Assembly: GCA_021154885.1 (NCBI GenBank)
Contig: JAJKHS010000091.1
Span: 9,089-73,088 of the forward strand
Origin: Thermoanaerobaculum sp.
GTDB lineage: Bacteria; Acidobacteriota; Thermoanaerobaculia; Multivoradales; UBA5704
Direction of reading: 5' to 3'
DNA length: 64,000 bases
A program made the translations under genes and the position numbers. The notes beneath the pieces are model-generated. The model was not told the origin of the DNA and ran no database searches. It was given only the letters and a program-made list of their open reading frames with translations. Below, in pieces: positions 3,223 to 61,201 of this stretch; position 1 is the stretch's first letter, and each line of letters starts with the position of its first letter.

Positions 3223-6200
3223 ATGAGCCCTATGAAGAGGTGCATGCTGTTCGTGAGTCTGCTGGTGGTCTTTTGTACAGGGGGCGCGGTCGCCGGGTGG
3301 GCGCAGCCGGCGGCGATGGTGGCGGACATCAACACCACCCAGGAAGATGTCGTCAACTGGTTCTTCACCTATCCGGGGTTCGTCCAGGTGGGGACGAACG
3401 TCCTCTTCATTCACGACGACGGCATCCACGGCCTGGAGCTGTGGCGCACGGACGGCACCGCCGCCGGCACCGCCCTGGTGAAGGACATCTGTCCGGGCGC
3501 CTGCTGGGCGATGATCCATACCTTCGCGGTCTGGAACGGCGTCCTCTACTTCGGCGCCGACGACGGCGTCCACGGCCAGGAGCTGTGGAAGAGCGACGGC
3601 ACGGCCGCGGGCACGACCCTGGTGGCGGATGTCAACCCCGGTCTCCCGAGCGGTTTCAGAAATGTCCTCGTGGCCGGCGGCAAGCTCTACCTGACCGCCG
3701 ACGACGGCGTCCACGGTGTCGAGCTGTGGACGACGGACGGCACGGCCGCCGGCACCGTCCTCGTCAAGGACATCAACCCCGGGCCGGCGGGCTCGCTGCC
3801 GCGCCTCTGGCTGGACACGGGCGGCAGGCTGCTGCTCAACGCCGACGACGGCGTCCACGGCCAGGAGCCCTGGATGTCCGACGGCACGGCGGCGGGCACG
3901 ACGCTGCTCGCGGACGTCAACCCGGGGGCCGGCTCCTCGAGCCCGCCCTTCTCCTCGGCCTGGGAGGATGCCGCCGTCCTGCCGGGTGGCCGCTTCGTGT
4001 TCCAGGCCGACGACGGCAGCCACGGCGCAGAGCTGTGGATCTCCGACGGCACTCCGGCGGGCACCGCTCTGGTCCAGGACGTCAATCCGGGTCCGGACGC
4101 CTCCGCCCCCTTTAACCTGCTGCCCTTCGCCGGCCGCGTCCTGTTCCGCGCCTGCGATGCCACGCACGGTTTCGAGCTGTGGGCCACGGACGGCACCGCG
4201 GCCGGCACCGTCCTCGTCAAGGACATTGCGCCGGGGCCGTTCGGCTCCGCCCCCTTGCAGCTCACGCCCTTCGGCGGCCAGGTCTACTTCGAGGCCGACG
4301 ACAGCACCTCCGGCCGGGAGCTCTGGCGCACCGACGGTACGGCCGCCGGCACCGTCCTCGTCAAGGACATCAACCCCGGACCCGCGGGAGGGTTCACGTT
4401 CGTTTTCCGCTACCCGATCACGGCCCTGGACAGCGCCCTGTATTTCTTCGCCGACGACGGCGTGCACGGCGCCGAGTTGTGGAAAAGCGACGGCACCGCG
4501 GCCGGCACGACGCTGGTAAAGGACATCTACCCCGGGAACGTCGGCGGCTTCGCTCTGGGCTTTGCCGGCATGGCCACCCTGGACGGACGGCTGTTCTTCG
4601 AAGCCATCGCCGCCGACGGTATCGAGCCCTGGGTGAGCGACGGCACGGACGCGGGCACGGTCGAGGTCAAGAACGTCTCCGCCGTGGCTTCGGGCCTGCC
4701 GGTCTTCAACGGCTTCCTGAACGGATCGATCCAGGACCTCGGCAACGGGCGGCTGGTGTTCCCGGGGCCCTTCGGCCTCACCGCGCCCGTACCCTGGGGA
4801 ACCGACGGCACGGCCGCAGGGACCCAGCCGCTCTCGCCGGGGGACGACTTCGGCTGGTATCTTCCCTTCCGCTTCGGCGCCCAGACGCTCCTGGGGGGCA
4901 ACGGGCTGTGGACCACGGACGGCACGCCCGGCGGCACGGCGCGCGTCGTGCCGCAGACGACGCTCGGCAGCGCCTCGGGCTTCGTCGCGGCTCTGGGCGC
5001 CGTCTACTTCTCCGGCGGCAACTCCTTGTGGATGACCGATGGCACGGCCGCCGGCACCGCCATGATCCAGAATCTGGGTCCCAACGCCAACGCCACGGTG
5101 CTCGGCGCGCTCGGCTCGTCCGTCTTCTTCAGCGCCTCTTCCAGCACCTTCGGCCAGGAGCTGTACCGGTCCACGGGCGTCAACTCGGTCTTCTTCCTGG
5201 GCGACCTCAATCCCGGCACCGGAAGCTCCTACCCGGCTTCCTTCACCCCTCTCGGCTCCGTCGCCGTGTTCACCGCCGACGGCGGCACCGCGACCGGGCA
5301 GGAGCTCTTCGTGACCGACGGCACTCAGGGCGGCACCGGCCTGCTCAAGGACGTTCAGCCGGGAGCCGGCTCGTCCCATCCCACCTCGCTGCTGCGGCTC
5401 GGCGGCTCCGTCCTCTTCGTGGCCGACGACGGCGCCACGGGCCTCGAGCTGTGGCGCACGGACGGCACCACGGCCGGCACCGTCCAGGTGAAGGACGTCA
5501 ATCCCGGCCCCGGCGCCGGCATCCAATTCATTCCGAGCTCCGGCCTGGCGCTGACGCCGATGGGCAACGCCGTCTACTTCGTGGCCGACGACGGCACTTC
5601 CGGCCGCGAGTTGTGGAAGAGCGATGGCACGGCGGCCGGCACCGTGCGGGTCAAGGACATCCGACCGGGATCAGCCTCCTCGGACGTCGACCTCCTCACC
5701 GTGGCGGGCAACCGCCTCTTCTTCGTCGCCGACGACGGCGTCCACGGCCGCGAGCTGTGGGTGAGCGACGGCACCGGCGCGGGGACCCGGATGACGCGGG
5801 ACGCCGCGCCGGGCCCGGGCTCGCCCGCCATCCAGGGTCTCACCGCTCTCGGCTTCCACGTCCTCTTCTCCGCCGACGACGGCGTGCACGGCCGCGAGCT
5901 GTGGCGCAGCAACGGCGGCCCGGCCGGCACCTTCCAGGTACAGGACATCGCCCCCGGCGCCGCGCCTTCGACCCCCACCGGCTTCGCGGCCTCCGGCGAT
6001 GGCGTCTACTTCGCGGCCAATGACAACCTGGCGGGCTTCGAGCTGTGGCGGGCGCCGCGGGCGGCCCTGATGACCACCTTCTCCGACGTGCCGCTCACGC
6101 ACTGGGCCTGGCAGTTCATCGAAGCGGTGGCCGGCGCCGGCCTCACCCAGGGGTGCGGTGCCGGGCAATACTGCCCGTCCCAGACGGTGAGCCGGGCGGA

Positions 6201-11140: not shown

Positions 11141-11240
11141 GAATGCCGGTCCCCTCTCAGGTCACCGCGGCACGTCCTCTGCCGCAGAGCGGCATGACTA
11201 TATCCGAGGTCGATGAAACCCGGGGCCGGCAGATCGAATC

Positions 11241-11385
11241 AGGCGAAGCAGGGACTTCAGGGACAACAGGGACGACAGGGACTTCAGGGACACGAAGAAG
11301 ACCAGAGAGCAGAGCTTTTCTCGTCCCTGATGTCCCTGAAGTCCCTGTCGTCCCTGACTTCGGCTTTCTGCCGCGCAGGCTCCTC
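11241..11385. repeat. Family-1 palindromic MITE/REP-like element, copy A
   Basis: Arm of five 9-bp units CAGGGACNN, a spacer, then the inverse arm GTCCCTGNN; 3-prime terminus TTTCTGCCGCGCAGGCTCCT shared with copies at 34598 and 44663. Confidence 0.7.
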
Positions 11386-11574
11386 GCCCGCGCACCCTGC
11401 CACCCATAGAAGACGGAAAAGGAGGCCCGATCTTGCAACCGCCCGCCAGGCAAGGATTTGCGAGGGGGGTTTCGGCTCATCTTAGAGGCGACTGAATTGA
11501 GAGCGGCGGCTCGCCAATCCTGCCCCGGCACACCCTGTTCTGTAGACCCAGTCCCGTCTCAGGAGAGAGAAGAC

Positions 11575-11769
11575 ATGCGAAAGACGAAGAAGAAGCTGAC
11601 CCTTCAGCGCGAAACCCTCCAGCAGCTCGGCGCTCAGGCCCTCCGCGTCGCCGGGGGCAGTCACGTCAATCCCACCTACGGCACCTGCCCGCCGACCCAG
11701 GAGATCTCCGTCTGCGTCACCTGCGAGACGATGACCAACTGCCAGCTCTCGGGCTGCATCTGCGCCTGA
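11575..11769 (+). CDS. Small precursor-like peptide A (64 aa): double-glycine leader plus Cys/Thr/Ser-rich core
   Basis: AGGAG 9 nt upstream of ATG; MRKTKKKLTLQRETLQQLGAQALRVAGG then SHVNPTYGTCPPTQEISVCVTCETMTNCQLSGCICA; leader conserved with two downstream paralogs. Confidence 0.6.
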   Translation: MRKTKKKLTLQRETLQQLGAQALRVAGGSHVNPTYGTCPPTQEISVCVTCETMTNCQLSGCICA

Positions 11770-11884
11770 CCGAGCACGGCTGTCCCGGTCCTGGCGGGGA
11801 GACGGCACATCAAAGATGCCCCAGCCCATGCGCAAGGGTCTGGGGCCACGCCCGATCCCGGGTGTGCCTCGGAAAGGAGATCCA

Positions 11885-12082
11885 ATGAAGAAACCCGTCA
11901 AGAAACTGGTCCTCAACCGCGAGACCCTGCGGGACCTGGAGAGCCTGCGCGGGGTGGCGGGCGGGGCCATCCAGCCCGCCCCGACCCTGACCTGCTTCGA
12001 CTGCACGCGCAACAATGGGTTGTGCATCAGCGGCGCTCCGACCTGCTTCACCAACGACACGAACTGCACCATCCAGGGTTAG
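11885..12082 (+). CDS. Small precursor-like peptide B (65 aa), paralog of A
   Basis: AAGGAG SD; MKKPVKKLVLNRETLRDLESLRGVAGGA then IQPAPTLTCFDCTRNNGLCISGAPTCFTNDTNCTIQG. Confidence 0.6.
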   Translation: MKKPVKKLVLNRETLRDLESLRGVAGGAIQPAPTLTCFDCTRNNGLCISGAPTCFTNDTNCTIQG

Positions 12083-16085: not shown

Positions 16086-16149
16086 GCGGCCCCTCCCGAT
16101 TCCCCTGACGACGATCTCCGGGCCGGCATTCCCGCCCGGAACGTCGCCC

Positions 16150-16365
16150 CCCGCCCCGAAGCCCTCACCCCTGTCCCCTCTCCCGCCCCTCCCACCCCCC
16201 TCACCGGGAGAGGGGAACCCGGTTGAAGCGGTCTTGCTGGTCTCCCCCTGTCCGTGTTTGTCCGTGCTTGTCCCTTCCGTCCTTGTTCTTTCTCCCTCTT
16301 CTCCCGGTGAGGGGGGTGGGAGGGAGCGGGAGAAGAGGGCCGGGGTGATGAGGGTCTTGGGGGAA
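16150..16365. repeat. Family-2 palindromic G/C-tract repeat element, copy 1
   Basis: CCCTCACCGGGAGAGGGG ... CCCTCTTCTCCCGGTGAGGGGGGTGGGAGGGAGCGGGAGAAGAGGGCCGGGGTGATGAGGGTCT; same core found at 32527, 35905 and 38018 in both orientations. Confidence 0.7.
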
Positions 16366-32526: not shown

Positions 32527-32712
32527 GCCCCCACCCAAGACCCTCATCACCCCGGCCCTCTTCTCCCGCTCCCTCCCACCCCCCTCACCGGGAGAAGAGG
32601 GAGACCAGCAAGAGCGCTTCAACCGGGTTCCCCTCTCCCGGTGAGGGGGTTGGGAGGGGGCGGGAGAGGGGACAGGGGGGGACAGGGGTGAGGGCTTCGG
32701 GGCGGGGGCGTT
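32527..32712. repeat. Family-2 palindromic repeat element, copy 2 (inverted relative to copy 1)
   Basis: CCCTCTTCTCCCGCTCCCTCCCACCCCCCTCACCGGGAGAAGAGGGAGACCAGCAAGAGCGCTTCAACCGGGTTCCCCTCTCCCGGTGAGGGGG. Confidence 0.7.
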
Positions 32713-33272: not shown

Positions 33273-34592
33273 TTACAGGACTCGCAGCATGGCCTCCAGG
33301 GCATCCGGGTGGCTGGCCCGCATCCGCGCCTCGTCGTCGCCGATCACGCCGCGGTGGACGAGTTGGGCCAGCGACTCCTCCAGGGCGATCATCCCTTGGC
33401 GCTTGCCAAGGGTGATCTCGTTGTAGAGCTTCTGCAGGGCATCGCTACGGATGTGATGGCGGATCGGGTAGTTGGCGAGGAGCAGCTCGATGGCCGGCAC
33501 CCGGCCCCGGCCGTCGGCCCGCGGCACGAGCTGCTGCACCACGATGGCGTGGAGCGACAGGGCGAGCTGGTGGCGGATCTGGGACTGCTGGGCCGGCGGG
33601 AAGACGTCCACGACGCGGTGCACGGCCTGCTGGGCGTCGTTGGTGTGGAGCGTCGAGAGGACCAGATGGCCCGTCTCCGCCGCCGTCAACGCCGTCGCCA
33701 CCGTCTCCAGGTCGCGCATCTCCCCCACCAGGATGACGTCCGGGTCCTGGCGCAGCGAGGCCCGCAGCGCCTCGTGAAAGGAGCGCGCGTCCCGTCCCAC
33801 CTCGACGTGCTCGACGACCGAGCGGATGGAGCGGTGCTCGTACTCGATGGGATCTTCGATCGTGATGACGTGGCTGGTGCGGGTACGGTTGATCTCCCCC
33901 ACCATCGCCGCCAGGGTCGAGGATTTCCCCGAGCCCGTGGGGCCGCAGACGAGGATCAACCCGCGGCTCGGCTTGACCAGCTCGGCCAGCACGGGAGGCA
34001 GGTTGAGGCTCGCCAGCGTGGGGATTTCCGACGGCAGGGCGCGGACGGCCGCCGCCGGCTCGCCGCGCTGGCGGTGGAGGTTGACCCGGAAGCGCCACGC
34101 CGGGCCGCTGCCATCGTCGAGCGAGCCGCCGCGGCCGAGGCTCAGGGTGAAGTCCGTGGCGCCCCTTTCCTCCAGGTCCAGCCGCTCCTTGCCCCCCAGA
34201 TGGGAGAGGAACAGCCGTCCCACGTCGTCCCCCTCCAGGGCGGCGGACTCCTCCATGCGGCTGAGGCGGCCGTTGATGCGGAAGACGGGCGGCAGGCCGG
34301 CGATGAGCAGCAGGTCACTCGCCTTGCGATACACCAGCTCGGCGAGGAAGCGGTTGAGGGTCTCCCCCTCGTTGACCAGGGCCTGCTCCGGCCGCCGCAG
34401 GGTCAGCGGCCGCTCGGACGGCTGGCGGATGAGCTCTTCATGGGGCTCGAACACGAAGCCTGCCTCGGAGTCGGCCGCCGCCTGGGTGCCGCGGTTCAGC
34501 TCGCGGACGAGCTCGTCGAGATCGGGGTCATGGAGGTGTTCGGCCATGTCAAAGAGAGCATACGTGGGAAGAGGGGATTTCGTCGCGGGCAT
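33273..34592 (-). CDS. pilT: PilT-family type IV pilus retraction / secretion ATPase
   Basis: Walker A GLILVCGPTGSGKSST; Asp/His boxes ITIEDPIEYEH ... ILVGEMRDLETV ... STLHTNDA. Start moved to ATG 34592 because the ORF-track start 34670 lies inside family-1 repeat copy B. Confidence 0.7.
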   Translation of the reverse strand: MPATKSPLPTYALFDMAEHLHDPDLDELVRELNRGTQAAADSEAGFVFEPHEELIRQPSERPLTLRRPEQALVNEGETLNRFLAELVYRKASDLLLIAGLPPVFRINGRLSRMEESAALEGDDVGRLFLSHLGGKERLDLEERGATDFTLSLGRGGSLDDGSGPAWRFRVNLHRQRGEPAAAVRALPSEIPTLASLNLPPVLAELVKPSRGLILVCGPTGSGKSSTLAAMVGEINRTRTSHVITIEDPIEYEHRSIRSVVEHVEVGRDARSFHEALRASLRQDPDVILVGEMRDLETVATALTAAETGHLVLSTLHTNDAQQAVHRVVDVFPPAQQSQIRHQLALSLHAIVVQQLVPRADGRGRVPAIELLLANYPIRHHIRSDALQKLYNEITLGKRQGMIALEESLAQLVHRGVIGDDEARMRASHPDALEAMLRVL

Positions 34593-34597
34593 CTCTC

Positions 34598-34762
34598 TAG
34601 GAGCCTGCGAGGAAGAAACAAGAAGCAAGGACGTAAAGGACATCAGGGACGACAAGGACCTCAAGGACACGAAGGAGATGCAAATCTGGTATTTTATTGT
34701 CCCTGCGGTCCTTGCGGTCCTTGATATCCCTGCTTCGGCTTTTCTGCCGCGCAGACTCCTGC
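34598..34762. repeat. Family-1 palindromic MITE/REP-like element, copy B
   Basis: TAGGAGCCTGCGAGGAAGAAA ... GGAC 9-mers ... GTCCCTGCGGTCCTTGCGGTCCTTG ... TTTTCTGCCGCGCAGACTCCTGC. Confidence 0.65.
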
Positions 34763-35772: not shown

Positions 35773-35904
35773 GGGTCTGCTCCTATTTCCCCGCTGGGCG
35801 AGTGCGAGGGAGAGAGTAGCGCGTTTCAAGAAAAAACGGAGTAAGTGGCCGGCGAGACGCCGGCGGTCCCAGGGGTCTTGCTTCTGCTGGTTTCAGACTA
35901 ACCA

Positions 35905-35975
35905 CTCCCTCTTCTCCCGGCGGTCGGGGGGGAGGCTGGGAGAAGAGGGCCGGGGTGATGAGGGCTTCGGAGGGC
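35905..35975. repeat. Family-2 repeat, partial copy 3
   Basis: CCCTCTTCTCCCGGCGGTCGGGGGGGAGGCTGGGAGAAGAGGGCCGGGGTGATGAGGGCTTCGG. Confidence 0.55.
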
Positions 35976-38005: not shown

Positions 38006-38017
38006 GCGTCGCCCCCA

Positions 38018-38188
38018 CCCCGAAGCCCTCACCCCCTGCCCCCTCTCCCGCCCCCTCCCAACCCCCCTCACCGGGAGAGGGGGTCCCGGCTGAGGCGTTC
38101 CTGCCTTTCTCCCTCTTCTCCCGGGGAGGGGGGTGTGAGGGGGCGGGAGAAGAGGGCCGGGGTGATGAGGGTCTCTCACTTCGCCCCC
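38018..38188. repeat. Family-2 palindromic repeat element, copy 4
   Basis: CCCGAAGCCCTCACCCCCTGCCCCCTCTCCCGCCCCCTCCCAACCCCCCTCACCGGGAGAGGGGG ... CCCTCTTCTCCCGGGGAGGGGGGTGTGAGGGGGCGGGAGAAGAGGGCCGGGGTGATGAGGGTCT. Confidence 0.7.
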
Positions 38189-44662: not shown

Positions 44663-44850
44663 CCTAGGAGGGTGCGCGGCAGAAACTCGAAGACAGGGAC
44701 AGCAGGGACACCAGAGACAGCAGGGACGAAAAATCTCGGGTCTTGACTAAGTTTTCACGTCCCTGTTGTCCCTGAAGTCCCTACTGTCCCTGCTGTCCTG
44801 CACCAACGCTGCCTACGAGCTTCTCTGCCGCGCAGGCTCCTAGGAGGGTG
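44663..44850. repeat. Family-1 palindromic MITE/REP-like element, copy C
   Basis: TIRs CCTAGGAGGGTGCGCGGCAGAAA / TTCTCTGCCGCGCAGGCTCCTAGG; arms of 9-bp units ACAGGGACA / GTCCCTGNN. Confidence 0.7.
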
Positions 44851-53020: not shown

Positions 53021-53059
53021 GAGATGCGCGCAAGCGTCGCAACCACCAAGCCACGAGAC

Positions 53060-53435
53060 GCCAATACCACGACACAAGCCGCACATACCAGGACAGCAGC
53101 CGCGAATACCAGCACATCAATCTCTCCGATTCCGACGTCAGCCGCAAATACCGAGATGGCAGCCGCAACTACCGAACTGTGAGACACCGACGCCACGGCA
53201 GCCTCACTCGCTCCACTTTCCTGAGCCGCAACTGTCCGAGCAGGAGCCGCGACTGTCTTCCTGTTTGCTGCAAATATTCGAGCAGCGCCCTCCGCTGCCG
53301 TGCCAGCGGTCACCGCGGCTCAGGCAGTTGCGGCAGCTTTCATGGAGTGGAGCGTCGCCTGGCAGGTAAGTTGCGGCACACGAACCGGCAAAGATCTCCG
53401 CTTGGGTTGCAAGCTGCGGCTGCTGGCTGGTAAGT
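53060..53435. repeat. 21-bp phased AGCCGC(A)A(T/C)ACC direct-repeat array followed by phased inverted AGTTGCGGC copies
   Basis: AGCCGC at 53067, 53088, 53130, 53151, 53214 and 53235 with degenerate units between them, all on a 21-bp phase. Inverted AGTTGCGGC or AGCTGCGGC at 53316, 53359, 53402 and 53423, also at 21/43-bp spacing. Confidence 0.6.
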
Positions 53436-53498
53436 TGCGGCTCCTGTCTTGAAGCTTGCAACCGACGCCGTCGGAGAGACGGCTCGTCTGCAGGAAGC

Positions 53499-58699: not shown

Positions 58700-59300
58700 T
58701 ATCGTCGGGTCACCTCTGCCGATTTCGTCGGGTCACCTCTGCCGGAGGGGTTCCTTTCAGGCCCGAAGGGCCGGCGGCATGTAGCCTGGGGCTGGCGCTT
58801 TTTGCCAGCCCCAGGAAACGCAACCCATACAAACCCAAAGCCCTGAAAGGGCGACGGCAGCTCATCATTTGAAGCAAACTGCCGCCGCCCCTCCGGGGCT
58901 TGGGGGTAATTTGGGGCTCTGTTCCTGGGGCTTGCGCCCCAGGCTACATGCCGCCGGCCCTTCGGGCCTGATGACTCATGAGACACCCTCTGAGTCTCAT
59001 GCCTCAATCCCCCGAAGGGTCCCGCCCTCTTTGTGACCTTCTTTCGAAGGAGGGAATGTTCCATGCGTAGCAAGGTCTCAATCCCCCGAAGGGTCTCCAC
59101 GAGAGTGAAGTCCATCAGTTGTCAAAGACCAGGTTCAATTCCACCGCATCCGGCGGTCGGGTTCTACCCACGTCCAACAGGAGCTCGGCTCCGGTGCGGG
59201 CGGAGTCGTCCTTCACGACCGAGGACGGACCCGCTGGCGCCAGTCCCGATCTGCGCCTGTGCTAGACTGCTTCTCAGCCTAAATCCCTAACCTGGGTCCT
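58700..59300. repeat. Structured non-coding spacer: tandem 20-mer, 35-bp perfect inverted repeats flanking 145 bp, repeated CTCAATCCCCCGAAGGGTC boxes
   Basis: TCGTCGGGTCACCTCTGCCG at 58703 and 58726; CAGGCCCGAAGGGCCGGCGGCATGTAGCCTGGGGC at 58759 and its exact reverse complement at 58935; box at 59003 and 59076. Confidence 0.6.
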
Positions 59301-60999: not shown

Positions 61000-61054
61000 G
61001 GGGTGTTTGGAAATGGTGTCAGTCCCGGGAAGAGGCGGTTCGGCGGAGGTCGTA

Positions 61055-61128
61055 GGGGCGCAATTCATTGCGCCCGCAGGGTCGGCGTCACCTCAGGGCG
61101 CAATGAATTGCGCCCCTACGACGCACGC
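61055..61128. terminator. Bidirectional hairpin between convergent genes
   Basis: TCGTAGGGGCGCAATTCATTGCGCCC ... GGGCGCAATGAATTGCGCCCCTACGA: 24-bp perfect inverted repeat, each arm itself near-palindromic. Confidence 0.45.
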
Positions 61129-61201
61129 GGAGCGTTTCGGATGGTGGACAGGCTGAAGCCGCAGATTTTCCAGACACCCAGTTAGGCACCAGCCAGGCCC
61201 A

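Follow-up and report, generated by a model that had tools for sequence, protein, structure and literature searches.

Known elements of similar form

The Correia elements (NEMIS) of Neisseria are small repeats with terminal repeats and TA flanks, and in transcripts they form a hairpin that can affect termination or processing; no cognate transposase is known for them. REPs, at 20-40 bp, have a GTAG or CGTC head and an association with RAYT transposases. The Foldback (FB) transposons of Drosophila consist, at kilobase scale, of long inverted arms of short tandem sub-repeats around a variable centre. The insertion sequence (IS) ISKpn6, which lies downstream of blaKPC in Tn4401, is about 1540 bp long, encodes a transposase and is flanked by TA at both ends. 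Among small elements with IS1182-family connections, the MITEs assigned to ISMac2 in Methanosarcina acetivorans measure 160 and 169 bp and share their terminal repeats with an IS1182-family partner; direct repeats of 4 or 0 bp are reported for them, and phased tandem sub-repeats are not described (PMC3852290).

The repeat analysed here occurs three times in a 64-kb stretch of an acidobacterial metagenome-assembled genome (MAG), and this whole stretch of 64,000 nt is called the window below. We estimate at roughly 80% the probability that the three loci belong to a single family of non-autonomous DNA transposons (MITEs) with ISKpn6-like IS1182 ends. They resemble the ISMac2 MITEs in element kind, size class and the sharing of ends with an IS1182-family partner, and differ from them in IS subgroup, host domain, TA flanks and phased 9-mers. 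Unlike ISKpn6, an element of Enterobacterales, they are 160-175 bp long, lack a transposase and enclose a 9-mer hairpin unrelated to any IS sequence. Small size, terminal repeats, TA flanks and a hairpin are common to them and the Correia elements, and by analogy the two may work similarly, although the Correia sequence is unrelated and has no 9-mer periodic arms. The extragenic palindromes of the REP/BIME/REPIN type often lie right after stop codons, as do the 9-mer modules without terminal repeats described below, but the size, heads and RAYT link of REPs are not seen here. The likeness to eukaryotic FB transposons is one of form only, with no relation in sequence or enzyme. The element kind is already known and a MITE as such is ordinary; new are this family and the naming of its cognate IS group as ISKpn6-like (IS1182), and the unusual part is the phased 9-mer hairpin core. 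Three anonymous repeats thereby become an annotatable element class in a poorly studied, uncultured lineage.

Anatomy of the three copies

Reading of the window sequence confirmed three copies, here A, B and C, at the loci where a preliminary description had placed them. Their features, none with an assigned strand, are as follows.

11222-11248, copy A, left-end remnant and linker (GGGGCC..GGCAGATCGAATCAGGCGAAG), degenerate; read and aligned to the other copies
11249-11291, copy A, left arm of five CAGGGACNN units; heptamer matches and Tandem Repeats Finder
11292-11322, copy A, central loop region, variable between copies; read, folded and aligned
11323-11357, copy A, right arm of four GTCCCTGNN units; heptamer matches and Tandem Repeats Finder
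11358-11384, copy A, linker CTTCGGC and intact right terminal repeat TTTCTGCCGCGCAGGCTCCT; 0 mismatches
34600-34759, copy B, complete 160-bp element, GGAG...CTCC; 20-mer search, Tandem Repeats Finder, folding and end pairing
34600-34618 and 34741-34759, copy B, left (2 mismatches) and right terminal repeats
34626-34668 and 34699-34733, copy B, arms
34598-34599 and 34760-34761, copy B, flanks, TA on the left and TG on the right
44667-44840, copy C, complete 174-bp element; 20-mer search, Tandem Repeats Finder, folding and end pairing
44667-44685 and 44822-44840, copy C, left (GG variant) and right terminal repeats
44694-44727 and 44759-44798, copy C, arms, with an additional 23 nt at 44799-44821
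44665-44666 and 44841-44842, copy C, flanks, TA on both sides

All follow one general plan: a terminal inverted repeat of 17-20 bp (GGAGYCTGCGCGGCAGAAA), the linker GCCGAAG, four to five phased 9-mers (CARGGACNN), a variable loop, and the mirror image of all of these. The three copies can be aligned end to end in both orientations and are about 70-75% identical to one another. A search of the window with the 20-mer TTTCTGCCGCGCAGGCTCCT at up to 3 mismatches returned 5 matches where 0.02 were expected, every one at a copy end (A right, B left and right, C left and right), and the end sequence GGAGYCTGCGCGGCAGA fits these five ends with 0-2 mismatches. Terminal inverted repeats had been claimed for every copy; the claim holds for both ends of B and C and for the right end of A, and fails at the left end of A (about 11222-11248), which is degenerate, has a deletion of about 5 bp and was missed by the 3-mismatch search. 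The right repeat of A occupies 11365-11384, with the element ending at 11383 before a flanking TC; its linker CTTCGGC is conserved in four relatives described below (L067, L106, L240 and L251), and the copy spans about 160 bp.

The arms of tandem 9-mers mirrored across a centre, and the long hairpin that each copy was said to form, are both borne out. In all three copies Tandem Repeats Finder detects arrays of period 9 on the two arms, and together the copies hold 18 of the 23 CAGGGAC heptamers in the window. Each copy folds into a single long hairpin (A, -97; B, -77.6; C, -111 kcal/mol; z-scores -8.9, -6.5 and -7.3), and none of 200 shuffles folds as well.

Copies A and C lie in intergenic regions between divergent genes and copy B between tandem genes. 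Copy B had been described as overlapping both the 5' end of pilT and the stop codon of the neighbouring oxidoreductase gene, and neither overlap stands: a pilT start at 34547 gives an exact match to the NCBI protein on record, which puts the element 52 nt upstream, and at its other end the element stops 2 nt before the stop codon. The only ORFs overlapping the copies are spurious, the NCBI record calls no gene inside copy B, and no transposase was found in the 64-kb window. The PilT and ALAD proteins of the window are closest to those of Thermoanaerobaculia MAGs.

A 12-nt direct repeat, CCTAGGAGGGTG, is present on both sides of copy C (44663-44674 and 44838-44849). The right flank of this copy begins like a further left end (TAGGAGGGTG), and the left end of the copy has the same GG variant; nested insertion, gene conversion or local duplication could each account for the 12-nt repeat.

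The ends are those of ISKpn6-like insertion sequences

What kind of element do these ends belong to? The sequence GGAGYCTGCGCGGCAGA is the terminal inverted repeat of ISKpn6-like insertion sequences of the IS1182 family. The ends of ISKpn6 read cc-TA-GGAGCCTGCGCGGCAGAAG ... CTCTGCCGCGCAGACTCC-TA-gcc, and the terminal repeat core GGAGCCTGCGCGGCAGA agrees with the ISKpn6 IRL at 17 of 17 positions. Genome contigs representing one genome per species were scanned with the query TYTCTGCCGCGCAGRCTCCT, which gave at least 117 stretches (L-numbers here and below label the loci fetched for comparison). Hosts among the matches listed include Acidobacteriota (Thermoanaerobaculia, Vicinamibacteria, Holophagales, Terriglobales), Binatia, Betaproteobacteria (Massilia, Janthinobacterium, Telluria, Rubrivivax, Ramlibacter, Piscinibacter) and Gammaproteobacteria (Marinobacter, Granulosicoccus, Vreelandella, Rhodanobacteraceae), and the sequence inside the terminus is wholly different from genome to genome. 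In viral contigs there was one match per pattern, one of them ISKpn6 itself beside blaKPC. Many of the listed matches lie at contig ends, as expected since the repeats are multi-copy; such repeats break MAG assemblies.

The 1527-bp element of a Janthinobacterium locus (L025) has two such ends and a 441-aa ORF whose product is an IS1182-family transposase (NCBIfam NF033551, E = 4e-103; Pfam DDE_Tnp_1 and DUF772). Full-length homologues with the same ends are 48-66% identical to it, with closer ones within Oxalobacteraceae. The matches listed place them in a Thermoanaerobaculia MAG (L003), in further Acidobacteriota (L047, L108), and in Binatia (L104), Vreelandella (L096) and Telluria (L117). 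Of the named elements ISKpn6 comes nearest, with a transposase that is 64% identical. The end sequence of this clinically known element is therefore common to a wide environmental family of IS and MITEs, spread over at least three phyla, and it is retained although transposase identity falls to about 50-64%. Three isolated loci, or a similarity confined to low-complexity tracts, would have spoken against the preliminary description; instead the termini are conserved and not of low complexity, and the family is wider than the window. Its suggestion of a MITE-like palindrome with a variable centre is supported by the identity of the termini and from the same ends bracketing unrelated cores elsewhere. 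Set against the REP, BIME and MITE families, the copies fit MITEs and differ from REP/REPIN in unit size and heads.

Pairing of left and right ends in all fetched loci gave 65 distinct elements, all of which start with GGAG and end with CTCC. TA stands on both sides in 42 of the 65 and most of the others are one base off TA; beyond the TA the flanks are not repeated, and the usual context is C-TA-G. The boundaries given earlier have to be moved accordingly, the element being GGAG...CTCC and the CTAG formerly counted with it being the flanking TA in its CTAG context. By length the paired elements form two groups, the MITEs with their several unrelated cores (40-340 bp) and the full IS (about 1.35-1.58 kb). 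Copies B (TA/TG) and C (TA/TA) fall within this pattern, and copy A keeps its right end only. A 4-bp CTAG duplication is ruled out by cases such as L031 (a-TA ... TA-a), and TA could be part of the element instead of a duplication. CTAG is rare in this 68% G+C genome and is often part of a stop codon.

The copies thus have the marks of a MITE: a length below about 600 bp, no coding capacity, terminal inverted repeats, ends in common with an autonomous IS, and dispersed copies. An ISKpn6-like transposase, a DDE enzyme encoded elsewhere in the genome now or formerly, would have bound both ends and moved the element in trans; a Thermoanaerobaculia relative (L003) does possess such a transposase. 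Insertion would take place at TA, preferably inside CTAG, so that TA then stands on both sides of the element.

A separate MITE family of about 160 bp also has ISKpn6-type ends and contains an internal hairpin (..ATTTTCACGATTTTGAGGTGCATAG..CTAT..CGAGAAATCG..) whose shape looks conserved, with base changes, over two phyla. It was seen in Acidobacteriota (L010-L013, L038, L068, L073-L077, L084, L090, L093, L095, L101, L110, L112) and in Gammaproteobacteria and other Pseudomonadota (L044, L053, L064, L070, L075, L079, L088), with many copies in chromosome OZ241897.

Relatives and occupancy

The junction of terminal repeat, linker and array (GGCAGAAA-GCCGAAG-CARGGAC) recurs in L067, L106, L114, L240 and L251 at about 70-75% identity. 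Its conservation across genomes shows that ends and core spread as one unit. Only one intact end remains in 4 of 9 copies examined (window A, L067, L106 and L251), so decay is common. The DNA of relatives chosen without regard to the repeat held 2 copies in 80 kb, and the window holds 3 in 64 kb, which puts the density at about 1 copy per 20-40 kb.

Occupancy differs between relatives. In L240 the CBS gene, a neighbour of pilT, carries a copy at its stop codon (gaggac-TA-GGAGCC...[element]...GGCTCC-ca); the CBS-UbiB spacer of L239 and L241 is short and has no insert, and that of the window has another, G/C-rich palindrome at that point. The ArsA-ALAD spacer of L251, whose ALAD is 93% identical, aligns on both sides and is missing about 270 nt that correspond to window 11232-11503, copy A included. 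For none of the three window copies did the relatives compared yield a clean empty site with one TA; their spacers are rearranged or differently filled. For copy B, the relatives carry Uma2 and BtrH_N between the oxidoreductase gene and pilT, which gives no clean comparison. Together, these sequence comparisons make mobility of the element family well supported, if not proven at base resolution.

The divergence between copies gives no indication of recent activity. The window copies are old and most of them probably immobile now, since A has lost one end and the ends of B are mutated.

The spacers of these relatives hold other repeats as well. A second, G/C-rich palindromic family (CCCCTCTCCCGC...GGGAGAGGGG) is present in the window at 16148-16361, 32534-32710, 35898-35967 and 38010-38174, and in L249 at about 3270-3420. 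Compared with L239, its member at 32534-32710, bounded by CAGAACGCCCCC / GGGGGCGTTCCG, is inserted in the CBS-UbiB spacer, and an element similar to this family fills the ArsA-ALAD spacer of L249. In L251, arrays of the short palindrome TTCCCCGTGGGGAA (241-290 and 435-520) lie on either side of the MITE copy.

The 9-mer hairpin core

The core has the design (CARGGACNN)n-loop-(NNGTCCYTG)n, and its unit is the heptamer CA-R-GGAC plus a 2-nt spacer of largely free bases, the first of which is preferably A. The heptamer is conserved and the spacers are variable; 89% of core positions are paired against 56% of spacer positions. By inference from the register, the A/G position faces its stem partner as G:C in 48 cases, A:T in 45, G:T in 12 and A:C in 6; it co-varies with this partner (Fisher p = 0.007 within mixed modules). 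RNAalifold on seven copies gave 40 consensus pairs, 9 of them changed on both sides, and a covariation term of +1.07, that is, no net bonus.

Eight full IS copies have no 9-mer units in their non-coding heads or tails. The core is therefore not the product of an internal deletion of the IS; IS tails are ruled out as its source on the same ground, and the core is not IS-derived.

A metagenome scan for three phased GTCCYTG units found at least 120 loci. Non-palindromic loci make up 95 of the matches listed, and 88 of these are unrelated one-stranded arrays in long ORFs for collagen-like GPQ or KDx repeats. About 25 of the matches listed are modules that repeat the palindromic design of the core, and in each the CARGGAC arm is the 5' one. 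Most of the listed palindromic modules have no recognisable terminal repeat, and L139, L144 and L146 have decayed ones. At about 17 of 24 loci among the matches listed a high-GC3 ORF precedes the module, which starts 0-33 nt beyond its stop codon, and modules often overlap the stop codon itself (TGAGGGAC, TAAAGGAC). Those without terminal repeats come from soil metagenome contigs, one of which (L204) is placed in Thermoanaerobaculia by its DUF4388 protein.

Four orthologues of the conserved TPR-DUF4388-HSP70 locus of L204 have the sequence ggaataaatctgcgtcccaatttgtcaaacatg downstream in common. From the stop codon to this sequence, L242-L244 have unrelated short hairpins, L245 has none, and L204 alone has a 9-mer module, which begins at the stop codon. 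In L232 a module has a stop codon on one side and a TPP riboswitch on the other. The 9-mer hairpin type is thus a variable occupant of the position directly behind the stop codon and can exist without IS ends.

A possible function of the hairpin

Could the hairpin be the functional unit and the IS ends incidental? It would then be a 3'-end element selected by the host (a terminator, an RNA stabiliser or a protein-binding array), and the window copies would persist for the hairpin's effect. This partly overlaps with the MITE explanation, and we consider it possible, if on the doubtful side. The placement of modules without terminal repeats behind stop codons in most of the metagenome loci argues for it, as do the L204 module, at a site where orthologues carry other hairpins or none, the L232 module ahead of its riboswitch, the retention of the heptamer beside changing spacers, and the covariation at the A/G position. 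An intrinsic terminator, in particular, would fit the position after stop codons. However, it is not obvious what a terminator would do between divergent genes, the setting of copies A and C, and scans for canonical terminators at A, B and C were negative. Behind the modules without terminal repeats, T-content hardly exceeds what the unit itself contributes, the U-tracts there being mostly weak, with clear T-runs in few (L122 and L156, for example). Nor do the two strands differ as selection at the RNA level would have them do: G-U pairs number 40 in sense against 36 in antisense (Wilcoxon p = 0.19), stability is likewise unbiased, and the tally of the more stable strand is 10 of 14. The conserved junction of repeat, linker and array shows that the version with terminal repeats spread as one unit.

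The remaining alternatives treat the palindrome as a member of another class. That it belongs to a structured small RNA or cis-regulatory RNA family is very improbable: the folding is very stable and some consensus pairs have changed on both sides, but the covariation term is close to zero, neither strand folds better than the other and no promoter-like site was found at A, B or C. Rfam at gathering thresholds over the whole window assigned no family to the copies, and at E <= 1 the copies and modules drew only far sub-threshold matches to generic miRNA-precursor hairpin models. Less credible still is a REP/REPIN-like palindrome dispersed by a RAYT. The elements are extragenic, palindromic, present in several copies and often just past stop codons, yet their termini are those of a DDE IS with TA flanks, the copies are 160-175 bp and not 20-40 bp long, they show no GTAG or CGTC head, and no Y1 transposase was found among the window ORFs examined. 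CRISPR, iteron and DnaA-box arrays were also considered and rejected, as the units are contiguous with 2-nt spacers, laid out as a palindrome and without likeness to those consensus sequences.

As for the source of the core, the MITE with ISKpn6-like ends probably took up a 9-mer hairpin of this type, or gave rise to the type. A tentative version of the former, which we hold to be rather unlikely as it stands, has the hairpin as an independent sequence-specific module of Thermoanaerobaculia (a 3'-end or insulator element, or a protein-binding array) that has its normal place at stop codons and was captured by ISKpn6-type ends; the window copies would then be a transposon-borne, portable form of a host regulatory hairpin. 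Wherever the MITE lands, a very stable stem-loop would come along that could block read-through or stabilise a transcript. If the hairpin is functional, such MITEs would spread a ready-made regulatory stem-loop.

Other features of the window

Near copy A, two paralogous small ORFs upstream of the ALAD gene (11458-11769 and 11816-12082, plus strand) encode peptides with a KKKLxLxRETLxxL...VAGG leader and tails rich in Cys and Thr. They resemble RiPP precursors of the double-glycine-leader type, and one is conserved in L251 at 2744-2938. A large ORF contains about 17 tandem coding repeats of 144 nt (48 aa; ...ADDGVHG.ELW.SDGTAAGT...) at 3380-6050.

Two matches to the Acido-Lenti-1 RNA above the Rfam gathering score lie within 58757-58971 (58759-58815 on the minus strand and 58924-58969 on the plus strand). 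The pair forms the arms of a 36-nt perfect inverted repeat, and the same motif occurs in L214. A 41-nt inverted repeat at 61040-61131, with a GGGGCGCAATTCATTGCGCCC core, is 85% complementary across a 10-nt spacer. Tandem Repeats Finder further reports period-21 tandem repeats at 53038-53116 and 53411-53459 (CGCAAATACCAGGACACAAGC; AAGCTTGCGGCTCCTGGCTGGT).
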